Below, piece after piece: positions 12,711 through 20,451 of a stretch of 64,000 nt of DNA. How positions within the stretch are numbered: position 1 is the stretch's first letter; each line of letters opens with the position of its first letter. The notes under the pieces are model-generated. The model did no database searches and had not been told where the DNA came from. It saw only the letters and a program-made list of their open reading frames with translations. A program made the translations under genes and the position numbers. This stretch comes from Anaerolineae bacterium (GTDB lineage Bacteria; Chloroflexota; Anaerolineae; JACRMK01), in assembly GCA_038198935.1 (NCBI GenBank), contig JBBPZQ010000033.1, positions 1,484 to 65,483 of the forward strand, written 5' to 3'.

Positions 12711-13470
12711 TCTGGTCGCGCGCGACCTCAAAGTCCGCTACAAAAATTCGCTGCTCGGCATCATCTGGTCCATGCTCAACCCGCTGGGCATGATGCTCGT
12801 GTTCACCGTCGTGTTCACGATCCTGATTCCGAATAACAGCATCGAACGCTTTCCAATTTTCCTGATGTGTGGGCTGCTGCCGTGGAACTGGTTCTCAGGC
12901 TCGGTTGTCGGCTCGATCTACAGCGTCGTCGGCAACGCACCACTGGTGAAGAAAGTATTTTTCCCGCGCGAGGTGCTGCCCATCTCGATGGTGCTGTCCA
13001 ACCTCGTGCACTTTCTGTTGGCGTTGATCGTTCTATTTGTGCTCATGTTCGTTTCGCAAACGCCGCCCACGCGCTGGCTGGTGTTGCTCCCTATCCTTGT
13101 CGTTATTCAACTGTTGTTCACGCTCGGGCTGGCGTTTTTCCTCTCGGCGATCAACGTGTATTATCGCGACACGGCGCAGATCATGGAAGTACTCATGTTG
13201 GCATGGTTCTTCCTAACGCCGATCTTTTACTCCACTGACCTCATTCCGCAGAGCAAAGAAATCTTCGGCGTGGTGGTGCCCGTACAGCGGCTTGCCTATA
13301 TCGTCAATCCAATGGCGTCGCTGATTGCGTCGTACCGCGTCATTCTCTATGACGGCGCGCCGCCTGCGCTGGACTTCTTCCTGCGCACCGCGCTCACGTC
13401 GCTCATCGTACTCGCGCTCGGCTACTGGTTCTTCCATCGCCTAAGCCGCGACTTCGGCGAAGTGCTCTAA
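12640..13470 (+). CDS. ABC-2 type polysaccharide/O-antigen export permease (Wzm/TagG-like); no cognate ATPase adjacent
   Basis: Signature YRYRDLVRNLVARDLKVRYKNSLLGIIWSMLNPL and six predicted TM segments. The frame opens at 12565 but overlaps the GT4 gene. A TTG at about 12640 is the probable start, though the start codon is uncertain. Confidence 0.75.
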   Translation: MLTSTRAAYQHIAQLYRYRDLVRNLVARDLKVRYKNSLLGIIWSMLNPLGMMLVFTVVFTILIPNNSIERFPIFLMCGLLPWNWFSGSVVGSIYSVVGNAPLVKKVFFPREVLPISMVLSNLVHFLLALIVLFVLMFVSQTPPTRWLVLLPILVVIQLLFTLGLAFFLSAINVYYRDTAQIMEVLMLAWFFLTPIFYSTDLIPQSKEIFGVVVPVQRLAYIVNPMASLIASYRVILYDGAPPALDFFLRTALTSLIVLALGYWFFHRLSRDFGEVL

Positions 13471-13547
13471 TTCGCAATTCGTACTACGCAATTCGTAAGT
13501 GGACATCACGCATTACGGATTGCACATCCCGCATTACGGAATTCTGC
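13471..13547. repeat. tandem/inverted repeat element (CGCAATTCGTA / CGCATTACGGA family)
   Basis: ttcgcaattcgtactacgcaattcgtaagtgg...cgcattacggattgcacatcccgcattacggaattc: two direct copies of each arm. Related to the element at 37606-37658. Confidence 0.55.
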
Positions 13548-13548
13548 T

Positions 13549-14178
13549 ATGCACCCCATCCAAAACTATCTCACCCAACTCAAACTCGTGCTCGACCAAC
13601 TCGACCAGCAGCGCATCGCAGAGTTGATTGCAATCTTGCGATGTGTGCGCGAGCAAGGCAATCACGTTTTCTTTATGGGCAACGGCGGCAGCGGCTCGAC
13701 CGCATCACACTTTGCGACGGACTTGGGCAAGGGTACTGCAATTGCGGGCAAAAAGCATTTCAAGGTGCTGCCACTGAACGATCACTTGCCGACGTTCTCC
13801 GCGTATGCGAACGACATGGGATATGAGACAGTCTTCGCGGAGCAGTTGCGCGCCTTCGTCGAGCGCGGCGATGTGGTGATCGGCTTGAGCGCGAGCGGCA
13901 ACTCACGCAACGTGCTCGAAGCGATGCGCGTCGCGGAGGACGCAGGCGCGATTCGCGTCGGCTTCAGCGGCTACGAAGGCGGCATGCTGATGCGGGCGGT
14001 TGATCTTAACTTGCACGCGCCCGCGCACAATGTGGGCCGTGCTGAAGACGCACACCACGTCATGATGCATCTCATCTGCGACTGCATTCGCAATCAGGGC
14101 GATGAAGCATATGAATTGCCGAAGTGGGTCGTGCGCGAGGATTGGGGCTTGAAAGTGATGCGCGATCATCATCGGTAG
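13549..14178 (+). CDS. gmhA: D-sedoheptulose-7-phosphate isomerase (SIS domain)
   Basis: VFFMGNGGSGSTASHFATDL, GLSASGNSRNVLEA, HHVMMHLICD: GmhA/SIS motifs. Confidence 0.85.
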   Translation: MHPIQNYLTQLKLVLDQLDQQRIAELIAILRCVREQGNHVFFMGNGGSGSTASHFATDLGKGTAIAGKKHFKVLPLNDHLPTFSAYANDMGYETVFAEQLRAFVERGDVVIGLSASGNSRNVLEAMRVAEDAGAIRVGFSGYEGGMLMRAVDLNLHAPAHNVGRAEDAHHVMMHLICDCIRNQGDEAYELPKWVVREDWGLKVMRDHHR

Positions 14179-14673
14179 TGATCACTACAGATATCGAATT
14201 ACGCACCTTGTCTCCGGTTGCAATCGAGAATACTAACGCTGCTTGCGCAAGCGGCACGTCGGAGCGCCGATATGCGCACATGACATGCCCTCTCGAATTT
14301 TGATAGCCAAATCATGGCTCCGTTCGTACTTCGGCAAAATATTCAACATTCCACGCCGCTTCATTTTTGCCGAATGGCCTTGACAATGAGCTAGCTCGCC
14401 ATTCGGTCAAATGCATATCATTCCACTCGATGCCTGCCGCGTCCGCTCCGCTTCTTCCCTCAAAGTTCAACAGCTACTGTGCGTAGAGCATTATTTTTTT
14501 CAGATCAGCCGCTTATGCACGACGGCTTGGAACAAGCGTCGGCGCTGAATGGATATTAACGTGAGCATAATCTTTCGGGGTGTTTGGAATGCGTCCGCCG
14601 TTCAGATGCGTATATAAAAACAGATGCGGAAAAATCCGCATCCTAATCCCGTTCTGTTAATAGGAGGAACGCT

Positions 14674-15339
14674 ATGCAGGCTGATGCAAAGACGGTCACG
14701 ACGAGGCGACAATTTCTAACCAGCACGGTTAAAGTCGCAGGCGGCGCAGCGCTGGCTCTTGCCATCGCAAAGTCGCCATCCGGATTGGGAACTCAGATTG
14801 CCGAAGCATCTACCAGCGGGGACATTGCCATTCTGAATTACGCACTGAAGCTTGAACGCCTCGAAAAGGCATTCTATGTGCAAGGCCAGAGTCGCTTCAC
14901 GATGACGGATTTCACTGGTGCCAATTTCATTCGCGGATTCGGCGGCAGAATCATCAGCAAGGTGTATGACTACTTCAATCTGATTCGCGATCATGAAGTG
15001 GTACACGTGGATACGCTCGTCTCGGTCATTCAGAGCCTCGGCGGCACACCGGTCGCCGCTTGCACGTACAATTTTGGCTATAGCAATGTAGACGGGTACG
15101 TGGCTGTTGCTCAAGCACTCGAAAATACCGGCGTGATGGCATACGACGGGGCGATCAAGCTGATTGAAGACCCGGAACTGCAGCAAGCAGGCGCGACGAT
15201 TGCCACCGTCGAAGCACGCCATGCGTCATACCTGAACCTCTTAAACGGCACGGTGCCGTTCCCCGCGGCATTTGACACGCCGAAAACGATGGACCAGATT
15301 TTGTTCATTGCTGGTCAGTTCATCGTTTCTTGCCCTTGA
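14674..15339 (+). CDS. Tat-signal ferritin-like domain protein (DUF4439 / Ferritin_2-like)
   Basis: Twin-arginine motif TRRQFLTSTVKVAGGAALALA. Ferritin-like four-helix features (ILNYALKLERLEKAFY...EARHASYL). Good RBS AGGAGG. Sits in an AT-rich block. Confidence 0.7.
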   Translation: MQADAKTVTTRRQFLTSTVKVAGGAALALAIAKSPSGLGTQIAEASTSGDIAILNYALKLERLEKAFYVQGQSRFTMTDFTGANFIRGFGGRIISKVYDYFNLIRDHEVVHVDTLVSVIQSLGGTPVAACTYNFGYSNVDGYVAVAQALENTGVMAYDGAIKLIEDPELQQAGATIATVEARHASYLNLLNGTVPFPAAFDTPKTMDQILFIAGQFIVSCP

Positions 15340-15476
15340 CGTTTCTCGTGCGAGCTAGGCTTTTGATAGGGTGTAGTGCTCACCGCGAGCGACGATCTGC
15401 CTGAAACCACCGGGCAGTTCGTCGCTCGCTTCAATTTTGCTACTGACATATAGTCTTGCACTGTTGAACAATGCGA

Positions 15477-15560
15477 CAATCATGGCGATGAAGCATACGA
15501 CTTGCCGAAGTGGATCGTGCGCGAGGATTGGGGCTTGAGGGTAGTCAGTGAAACGTGAGG
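15477..15560 (+). pseudogene. duplicated 3' fragment of gmhA (imperfect direct repeat of 14091-14160)
   Basis: About 62/68 nt identical to the gmhA 3' end. Translates to NHGDEAYDLPKWIVREDWGL, versus NQGDEAYELPKWVVREDWGL in gmhA. No upstream ORF continuity. Confidence 0.55.
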
Positions 15561-15660
15561 CGCGACGCACGTCGAATAGTCTGCATCAGAATGGGACGCA
15601 AGATGCAAGAAGCAGGATCCGTGCAATCCTGAATCTTGCGTCTTGCAGCCTGCATTGCAC

Positions 15661-16344
15661 TTACAGATTCTTCTCCAGAAACTCAATCGTCTGCTTCCAC
15701 GCATCGGCGGCTGCCTCGCGGTTATAGACTTCGGGGCGTGTATCGTTGAAGAACGCGTGGTGCGTGTTGGGATAGACATGTACCTCGATGTGCTTGCCGC
15801 GCTTCTGTATATCCTTTTGCAATTGATCGACCATCTCCGCCTTCGTGAAGTCGTCTTTCTCCGCATAGATGCCGAGCACCGGTGCCTGTAGTTGATCGAG
15901 GTCGCCCATTACGAATGCGTGCACGCCGTAAAAGACCACGCATGCACCAACATTGTCGGGATTGTGCGCCGCTGCAAATAGCGACAGCGCGCCGCCCATA
16001 CAGAAGCCGACCGTGCCGACTTTTTTGCTGGTCACGGCTTCGTGCGCTGAAATGTAATTGATTGCGCCGCGCAAATCTTTCTCGGCGTCGGAGATTTTCA
16101 TCCCCATCATCAACTTGCCCGCTTCGTCGGGCTCCTGATTGGATGCAGCTTTGCCATGATAAAGGTCAGGTGCGAGCGCGACGAAGCCCGCCGCCGCGAA
16201 GCGATCCGCCACATCCTTGATGTGCGGCACCAAACCCCACCACTCTTGAATCACGATCACGCCTCTGCCGCGTCCCGACGCTGGTATCGCAAGGTAGCCT
16301 TGCGCGCTCGTGCCGTTACTCGTGAATGAAACCATTTCGCCCAT
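15661..16344 (-). CDS. dienelactone hydrolase family protein
   Basis: DLH fold motifs (GVIVIQEWWGL, GFCMGG nucleophile elbow, His near the C-terminus). Confidence 0.85.
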   Translation of the reverse strand: MGEMVSFTSNGTSAQGYLAIPASGRGRGVIVIQEWWGLVPHIKDVADRFAAAGFVALAPDLYHGKAASNQEPDEAGKLMMGMKISDAEKDLRGAINYISAHEAVTSKKVGTVGFCMGGALSLFAAAHNPDNVGACVVFYGVHAFVMGDLDQLQAPVLGIYAEKDDFTKAEMVDQLQKDIQKRGKHIEVHVYPNTHHAFFNDTRPEVYNREAAADAWKQTIEFLEKNL

Positions 16345-19684: not shown

Positions 19685-19707
19685 CGCACAAGGCGGTGAG
19701 CGCTGCC

Positions 19708-20250
19708 CTATCCGCTTTCAACATCCGCTGCTCTGCCCAGCGGCATCTCGCGTTCCATGCGGCCGAGATAGATGAGTGATTCGAGGTCTTCCAAGTCTTC
19801 GGGCGAGTAACGCGCCACGACGGCGCGCACGTTTTCGAGCTTCTCGTCGGATGCCCAACCAAGCATCCGCGAGACGTCGGCAAAATCTTGTGCGCGTTGT
19901 GCCGTCAGTTTCATCAGCACAAGGTACTGCAAAGCGATAACAGGGAAGCCCGCAGCATCGTATCCGGGATCAGTCAGGGCTTCTCTCAGCCAAGGATAGT
20001 TGCCGAACAGCACATCCACTTCGACGCCTTCAGGCGAGTGCAGTAGAAATCCCGGTACCGCCAAACGGGATAAGACACGAAAGCCTGCTTGTTTGAATCG
20101 TGCCATAGCTGCATCCGCGTCAGTACGATGAACTAACACATCCATGTCTTTTGTCATGCGCTCTGCCATGTACGCGCGAGTCGCAACGCCGCCGATCAAT
20201 ACCCAATTGATTCCCTTCAAAATCTCTCGCAAGTCGGGCCATGGAATCAT
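19708..20250 (-). CDS. minimal nucleotidyltransferase (Pol-beta superfamily) fold protein
   Basis: GG...DMD motif: IGGVATRAYMAERMTKDMDVLV matches G[GS]x9-13Dx[DE]. ATG at 20250 has AAGGAGA RBS. The ORF-track N-terminal extension is rejected. No HEPN partner seen. Confidence 0.6.
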   Translation of the reverse strand: MIPWPDLREILKGINWVLIGGVATRAYMAERMTKDMDVLVHRTDADAAMARFKQAGFRVLSRLAVPGFLLHSPEGVEVDVLFGNYPWLREALTDPGYDAAGFPVIALQYLVLMKLTAQRAQDFADVSRMLGWASDEKLENVRAVVARYSPEDLEDLESLIYLGRMEREMPLGRAADVESG

Positions 20251-20451
20251 CGCAGTTCTCCTTTGCAGAAACTGGACGGCGCTGCCCGCACCGGGGCGAA
20301 TGCGGCGCGTGACCATCTCAATAAGAAACCGTCGCTTCTGGCGCGGCGTGAGGTTGCCGTCAGGTGCGATCTTGGCTATTGCGGGGGGAATGCGTTCGTT
20401 GTCCACAACATTTATTATACAGAGCGGCAGCAAATCTAACCGAGATTCACC

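Follow-up and report, generated by a model that had tools for sequence, protein, structure and literature searches.

Why does the end of a gene recur, as an orphan, 1.39 kb downstream of the gene itself? The question arises in a stretch of 64,000 nucleotides (nt) from an Anaerolineae bacterium of the Chloroflexota (GenBank assembly GCA_038198935.1, contig JBBPZQ010000033.1, positions 1,484 to 65,483 of the forward strand), which we call the window. Here an intact GmhA-like gene with a SIS domain (hereafter the SIS gene; 13549-14178, plus strand, 209 amino acids) is followed by a gene for a ferritin-like protein of family PF13668 (14674-15339, plus strand, 221 amino acids) and then by a second copy of the SIS gene's own end. 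An earlier note on this DNA had taken the arrangement for a small acquired cassette. We favour, at somewhat better than even odds, the reading that a foreign module was acquired horizontally at the junction between the SIS gene and the dienelactone-hydrolase-family gene (DLH) beyond it, through homology-anchored recombination in which the resident gene tail was displaced.

The repeat itself is real. The earlier note had seen about 70 nt of the gmhA 3' end recurring at about 90% identity; the direct repeat comprises 62 nt (14091-14152 versus 15477-15538), 58 of which are identical (94%), and over the longer 70-nt span identity is 61/70, or about 87%. A degenerate pattern of 55 nt built on the repeat matches exactly two places in the 64-kb window and none in 100 shuffled sequences, while the rest of the block recurs only as chance matches of 12-15 nt; a dispersed repeat or a miniature inverted-repeat transposable element was thereby ruled out. 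Copy 1 (14091-14152, plus strand) encodes codons 182-201 (NQGDEAYELPKWVVREDWGL) of a lineage-specific C-terminal extension of the SIS protein, the C-terminus of which reads CIRNQGDEAYELPKWVVREDWGLKVMRDHHR before its stop. Copy 2 (15477-15538) carries its own tail and stop codon, so that the orphan 3' fragment on the plus strand spans 15477-15558 (NHGDEAYDLPKWIVREDWGLRVVSET) and ends, translated in frame, in CDNHGDEAYDLPKWIVREDWGLRVVSET with the stop at 15556-15558. To the right of the shared core identity falls abruptly, with mismatches rising from 4/62 to 5/9 (Fisher p 0.001).

Copy 2 is a 3' fragment rather than a decayed paralog, since a TAG stop lies in frame 8 codons upstream of the homology, no further remnant of GmhA was found, and the flanks upstream of the two copies are unrelated. 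A tblastn search of 14100-15700 with 120 GmhA homologues found, beyond the gene itself, a single match, covering residues 177-204 at 15472-15546; no GmhA-like homology was present upstream of 15472, which rules out a degraded paralog. The 60-nt flanks upstream of the copies likewise share no similarity (773/2000 shuffles reach their score), and downstream there is weak gapped similarity past an indel (55/2000 shuffles; p about 0.03). The earlier note's claim that copy 2 is a gene fragment thus held, and the longer upstream gmhA homology that, by its account, would have refuted this was absent. By eye, CAAT is duplicated and there may be a TGCGAC match ahead of an in-frame gap of 9 nt, neither of them assignable. 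Copy 2 retains the GLRV that is typical of the family, and the 102 nt between its stop and that of DLH hold one strong hairpin, a gene-end arrangement as found in two of the related loci described below (L010 and L012). Copy 2 probably represents the SIS gene's original end, now displaced.

The repeated segment is the start of a C-terminal extension that lies outside the isomerase domain, given that the match to TIGR00441, the gmhA equivalog model, covers only residues 35-180. Such an extension runs for about 29 residues past the SIS domain in the GmhA-like proteins of this clade (14089-14178 in the window; homologues P0002-P0031), and about 30 homologues from Chloroflexi-type metagenome-assembled genomes have its motif YxLPxWxxxExWGLRV in common. 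To call the gene gmhA, as the earlier note did, is only partly apt: the protein is GmhA-like and matches Pfam SIS_2 and SIS, but it scores 106.8 bits against the equivalog cut-off of 209.45. All GmhA-like proteins of the clade fall under that cut-off, and their substrate may therefore differ from that of classical GmhA. Some sources label homologues D-sedoheptulose 7-phosphate isomerase.

What stood at this junction before can be judged from related loci, numbered here with an L. The gene order M50 peptidase, HD, prephenate dehydrogenase, GT2, GT4, ABC-2 permease and SIS is kept in all relatives with enough sequence (upstream synteny in L007, L010, L012, L013, L014, L018, L019 and L030), and the SIS core aligns with theirs at 75-79% nucleotide identity up to 14090-14105. 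The right-hand anchor is the convergent DLH gene (15661-16344, minus strand; Pfam DLH, 197 bits), whose product shares 81% amino acid identity with that of L010, 68% with L012, 94% (over 18 amino acids) with L013 and 76% with L030. Between the anchors the loci differ. Where GmhA identity is 69% (L010/L011), the SIS gene is followed by 42 nt and a hairpin and then by convergent DLH; at 63% (L012) 240 nt separate it from convergent DLH; at 80% (L013) and 76% (L030) a translationally coupled GNAT gene stands in between; and at 70% (L007, L019) an aminotransferase gene follows SIS directly. The GNAT gene, an Acetyltransf_3, overlaps the SIS stop with its start (L013 1242-1895; L030 692-1357) and has no flanking repeat. 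Neither a ferritin-like gene nor a second tail copy occurs in the slot of any relative compared (63-80% GmhA identity).

Against every relative known, the block thus stands out as an insertion, with copy 2 in the position expected of the original gene end. The earlier note had suggested asking whether gmhA directly precedes DLH in related genomes; it does in L010/L011 and L012, GNAT intervenes in L013 and L030, and the repeat and gene order of the window are not shared. As GNAT sits in the same slot of the two closest relatives, different cargo has come to occupy the SIS/DLH junction independently. The strong hairpin between the tail remnant and DLH (15595-15645; fold -34.5 kcal/mol, z -4.9) is analogous to the L010 hairpin between the SIS and DLH stops, and is likely the ancestral shared terminator. 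The block was also described as lying inside a glycan-biosynthesis cluster; it stands instead at the 3' edge of a conserved four-gene GT2-GT4-ABC2-SIS set, of which SIS is the last, at a convergent junction.

The block differs from its surroundings in composition. Its guanine-cytosine content (GC) is 0.519 over 14091-15476 (1386 nt), in the 0.15th percentile of windows of that length (mean 0.589, standard deviation 0.020), and the ferritin-like coding sequence has the lowest GC among 51 long open reading frames (0.541 versus 0.597 +/- 0.020), with a third-position GC of 0.613 versus 0.72 +/- 0.05. By parts, GC is 0.496 in the non-coding spacer after the SIS gene (14179-14587) and 0.453 in the leader of the ferritin-like gene, against 0.589 for the whole window. 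The AT-richness reported earlier therefore stands for the block and its gene, but the non-coding part alone is not more AT-rich than other intergenic gaps (range 0.42-0.62).

The cargo is a self-contained module of leader, coding sequence and terminator. Homologues at 80-83% amino acid identity (L015/L016 and L017) share only 14588-15345/15393 with the window and lie in other contexts, that of L015/L016 downstream of a carboxylesterase gene; this segment may therefore be taken as the mobile unit. Nucleotide homology begins at 14588 in all three loci, which delimits an 86-nt leader (14588-14673, plus strand; fold z -2.93) containing TATATAAAAA (14611-14620), a hairpin GATGCGGA-AAAA-TCCGCATC (14623-14642) and the ribosome-binding site AGGAGG (14663-14668). 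The TATATAAAAA stretch and the hairpin are just as the earlier note had described them. The 8-bp stem keeps its pairing by compensatory changes, from C-G to T-A in L017 (125-206) and from G-C to T-A in L015 (1964-2065). At the other end stands an intrinsic terminator (15385-15437, plus strand) with a 17-bp stem and TTCAATTTT (fold -36.1 kcal/mol, z -7.0), and the end of the stem and the T-run recur downstream of the L017 homologue. In front of homologues at 71% identity or less no such leader was found. A segment of its own (15438-15476) separates the terminator from the right-hand joint at 15476/15477 (or 15470/15471).

How could such a module have come to sit between two copies of a gene tail? 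We suppose that it entered the convergent SIS/DLH junction carrying its leader, its gene for a probably Tat-exported (twin-arginine translocation) PF13668 protein and its terminator, with one of the recombination endpoints falling within the SIS gene, where the C-terminal extension begins (codon about 181). The extension version borne by the incoming DNA would now complete the SIS gene as copy 1, while the resident extension, its stop and the old terminator hairpin would have been pushed 1.39 kb downstream, with the extension left as the non-functional copy 2. DNA from a closely related lineage could have been taken in by homologous crossing-over, either within the SIS gene or ahead of it, coupled to an illegitimate joint at 15476/15477. 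Indeed, the left boundary of homology is sharp and the right one decays through an indel, a pattern that suggests two diverged alleles and one illegitimate junction.

The differences between the copies point the same way. They are biased to third codon positions (p about 0.03 over a 23-codon block), and the five amino acid changes are all conservative (Q/H, E/D, V/I, K/R and M/V); only 0.3-0.9% of simulations of random mutation over the 23-codon block attain a protein similarity as high as the one observed. The earlier note had proposed an insertion or recombination event that duplicated the target 3' end. An insertion or recombination it is, but the pair of copies resembles two alleles that selection has shaped as they diverged, more than it does a recent duplication of the target. 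The genes of the block, the translations of the spacer and the ends of the insert revealed no integrase, transposase or terminal inverted repeats, and no recombinase family is represented among the genes called within +/-6 kb.

Displaced 3' ends downstream of newly acquired DNA have been described at Vibrio type VI secretion system (T6SS) and Rhs loci, and attributed to homology-facilitated illegitimate recombination (PMC5361080, where de Vries & Wackernagel 2002 and Prudhomme et al. 2002 are cited). The C-terminal displacement at Rhs and Vibrio cholerae T6SS loci (PMC5361080) resembles our locus in that a conserved upstream part of a gene would anchor the exchange by homology, the former 3' end would survive as an orphan downstream of the new DNA, no integrase is present, and the slot differs between relatives. 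In contrast, the displaced piece here is a tail of 20-26 codons from a housekeeping-type SIS protein, and not a toxin domain with its immunity gene. There is, moreover, a single displacement rather than an array, and the new and old tails are nearly identical instead of being alternative functional variants.

Several points weigh against recombination between alleles. Over the strict 62-nt block (20 codons) the signature of selection is not significant (p 0.07-0.16), the extension of homology downstream is weakly supported (p about 0.03), and the abrupt drop in identity from 58/62 to 4/9 also fits a discrete crossover core. The donor would have had to carry the ferritin block downstream of its own SIS gene already, which is an extra step, and the origin of the 410-nt spacer is not accounted for. 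Neither the empty site nor the donor arrangement was seen, and no relative above 80% GmhA identity was present, in the collections searched. A scan of GTDB genomes for the empty site or the donor returned only relatives at 40% identity or less; a search of 5.8 billion proteins gave no GmhA-like protein above 80% and no ferritin-like protein above 82%, and neither of these best matches (80% and 82%) has the SIS-ferritin arrangement; a scan of JGI metagenomes found ferritin homologues at 71% or less, the leader being absent.

The crossover core leads to the first of the rival explanations. The e14 prophage, like phage 21, integrates in the 3' end of E. coli icd and leaves an icdC pseudogene fragment. 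By analogy, the block could be a decayed or non-autonomous site-specific element, whose integrase would have crossed over within the 62-nt core, rebuilt the SIS gene with an element-borne end (KVMRDHHR and stop) and displaced the original, the integrase and other functions having later been lost or acting in trans. Its topology is exactly attL-cargo-attR, with one copy in an intact gene and the other an orphan 3' fragment, and, as in icd, integration would lie inside the 3' end of a gene that a replacement end keeps intact, the original end becoming the far direct-repeat fragment. The abrupt change of identity at the right edge of the core, the sharp left edge of copy 2 and the variability of the slot among relatives all fit, and so do the conservative substitutions, as an element-borne tail would be under purifying selection too. 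Yet whereas the icd repeat is about 165 nt, ours is 62 nt, and the insert of 1.39 kb bears one cargo gene and no integrase, phage or other element gene, nor is there any integrase, recombinase or element gene within +/-6 kb. The spacer holds no protein remnant, and a degenerate 34-nt core of the repeat has 0 matches in 2.9 million viral contigs. Nor does a pure att model predict the similarity past the core (K/R, V/V and M/V, with weak gapped homology), and in the relatives with GNAT at this position that gene shows translational coupling to SIS and is flanked by no repeat. We regard a decayed integrative element as unlikely, though it is the most serious competitor of homology-anchored recombination.

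A second rival is an in-situ duplication: foreign DNA, taken up where the SIS tail broke or where replication switched template within it, would have duplicated about 62-100 nt of its target on both sides, in the manner of a very long target-site duplication, after which copy 2 decayed neutrally and copy 1 stayed under selection. This takes a single step, with no need for a donor in which the SIS and ferritin genes already stood together; the insert is bounded exactly by the direct repeat; and the substitutions in the 62-nt core, taken alone, are compatible with neutral decay at the p-values of 0.07-0.16 given above. Divergence is nevertheless very uneven, at 6.5% in the core but above 50%, with an indel besides, immediately beyond it, a contrast that uniform neutral decay of copy 2 would not lead one to expect; copy 2 retains GLRV and an open frame to its own stop; and conservative changes are over-represented in the 23-codon block (p 0.003-0.009). 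Besides, 62 nt far exceeds the known duplications made by transposases, and there is neither a transposase nor terminal inverted repeats. We regard an in-situ duplication as rather improbable.

A transposon or insertion sequence, which would be recognised by a transposase, terminal inverted repeats and a target duplication of 2-14 bp, was rejected on all three counts: there is no transposase, an inverted repeat of the insert ends is absent (412/500 and 491/500 shuffles score as well), and the repeat is 62 nt long. A phage or plasmid origin was also rejected, as the viral contigs gave 0 matches to the 34-nt degenerate core and in the plasmid collection nothing turned up but ferritin-like genes of distant, haloarchaeal kind. 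A more speculative idea, in which we place very little confidence, is that the 1386-nt unit of 62-nt core and cargo is a minimal integrase-less cassette, mobilised in trans by a recombinase with specificity for the extension-coding sequence; if true, these Chloroflexota-like genomes would reserve the SIS/DLH junction for cargo, and GNAT would be another occupant. Finally, a chimeric join of two strains or loci during metagenome assembly, suggested by the origin of the contig and by several relatives' contigs that break just after SIS (L014, L018), is hardly credible, since a chimera at a shared k-mer yields a single copy, whereas here a diverged pair is spaced by 1.39 kb, synteny with relatives holds on either side, and an independent Logan contig (SRR24807095) is 100% identical over 14000-15700 with both junctions included, so that the arrangement is not peculiar to one assembly.

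Food for further thought is how the acquired gene is expressed. The cargo would be transcribable from its own leader, and its transcripts would end at its own terminator. Since the region after the SIS stop (14170-14260) has no terminator (fold z -0.3), read-through from the SIS operon into the cargo is possible as well. In that region a perfect 14-nt palindrome, GTAGTGATCACTAC (14175-14188), overlaps the SIS stop codon, and a perfect 12-nt palindrome, GCTTGCGCAAGC (14241-14252), follows 60 nt further on; neither has a significant fold (z -0.3). On the other side of the SIS gene, at 13468-13540 in the 78-nt gap that separates it from the ABC-2 permease gene, tandem direct repeats form two sets, TAATTCGCAATTCG/TACTACGCAATTCG and TGGACATCACGCATTACGGA/TGCACATCCCGCATTACGGA.

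The 410-nt spacer (14179-14587) also contains the TTGACA flanked by an inverted repeat (14365-14378/14398-14411) in which the earlier note had seen promoter-like sequence. Both are present, but a promoter or operator finds no support: the inverted repeat folds no better than shuffled sequences (z -1.66), and the TTGACA lies about 290 nt upstream of the cargo start, outside the conserved leader and with no -10 partner. A sigma-70-type promoter at TTGACA was rejected, as the scan did not call the site and the total of promoter-like sites equals the shuffle expectation. Each reading frame of the spacer has several stop codons, its 10 translated fragments gave nothing beyond one chance-level match against Pfam at E <= 10, and no nucleotide homology to it was found in any fetched locus. 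A pseudogene of an integrase, a GNAT or another protein was rejected as well, there being no Pfam support and no match there for the GNAT protein of L013; so was a riboswitch or other known RNA, the 495-nt upstream region having no match in Rfam at E <= 1.

Another question regards what the cargo might do. Its match to Pfam Ferritin_2 (PF13668) is strong (130.3 bits versus a cut-off of 24.7, profile positions 1-135 of 138). The closest solved structure is that of the tardigrade protein RvY_06210, or RvFeMP-1 (E 4.5e-27, aligned over residues 51-221). RvY_06210 has been characterised, along with Deinococcus DRB0118, as a ferritin-like metabolite phosphatase (FeMP) related to the plant desiccation-related protein PCC13-62, and activity on (damaged) nucleotides and metabolites has been demonstrated for RvFeMP-1/2 and DRB0118 only (PMC11616004). 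The predicted dimetal ligands of the cargo (E61, E107xxH110, E150 and E187xxH190, a full E/ExxH/E/ExxH set) align with the ligand positions listed for RvFeMP-1 (PMC11616004). The PF13668 match places the cargo with RvFeMP-1 (PDB 8kce/8x1k), DRB0118 and PCC13-62. Unlike RvFeMP-1, it bears a putative bacterial signal for twin-arginine export, lacks an IgG-like domain, and has an ExxH in place of DxxH and a Gly aligned to Asp135, a second-site Asp.

The N-terminal region TRRQFLTSTVKVAGGAALALAIA contains the twin-arginine motif TRRQFL by sequence inspection; the protein gave no match to NCBIfam models at E <= 0.01. The Tat pathway probably exports it in folded form, metals included. Judged by its family, it may be a dimetal phosphatase or a stress-protection protein in the cell envelope. 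The twin-arginine motif and the AGGAGG reported in the earlier note are both there, but its ferritin-like protein belongs, on these sequence features, to the PF13668 group of FeMP and desiccation-related proteins and not among the iron-storage ferritins. This removes the rationale for an iron metalloregulator acting on the inverted repeat, an idea which has no particular basis.

The homologues of the cargo have peculiarities of their own. In the closest of them (L017, 83% amino acid identity) an in-frame TAA at 334-339, where the window has GAA, splits the gene, which is either a pseudogene or affected by a sequencing error. In L015 (2705-2755) and L016, which are identical in sequence here, the final 17 nt of the ferritin-like coding region (ATCGTTTCCTGCCCGTA) occur three times in tandem across the stop codon, and these two contigs, from separate samples, both terminate 64 nt past that stop. 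A weak echo of the tandem is seen in the window (15322-15351), with CGTTTCTTGCCC at 15322 versus CGTTTCTCGTGC at 15340. Further away, at 19685-20451 on the minus strand (L001 11035-11733), an open reading frame of 232 amino acids that belongs to no Pfam family is flanked by genes for two ABC transporters; its positional counterpart in L007 has a faint AbiEii match.

The locus bears an ordinary mark of horizontal gene transfer, one of a kind already known, in a lineage that has been sampled poorly, and nothing in it challenges current understanding. It has consequences for annotation: 15477-15558 should be flagged as a pseudogene remnant, and the cargo is better named a PF13668 ferritin-like (FeMP / desiccation-related family) protein than a ferritin. 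That the intact SIS gene retained a full copy of the extension suggests that the extension is functionally needed. Moreover, the two 62-nt repeats could permit rare RecA-dependent loss of the block, which would leave a SIS gene with the tail of copy 2 restored. The convergent SIS/DLH junction is a variable slot among relatives, and the orphan gene tail within it is a record of where the insertion took place. As such, it offers a clean and small example of how a single stress-related gene can enter the chromosome of an uncultured bacterium with no visible mobile-element machinery.

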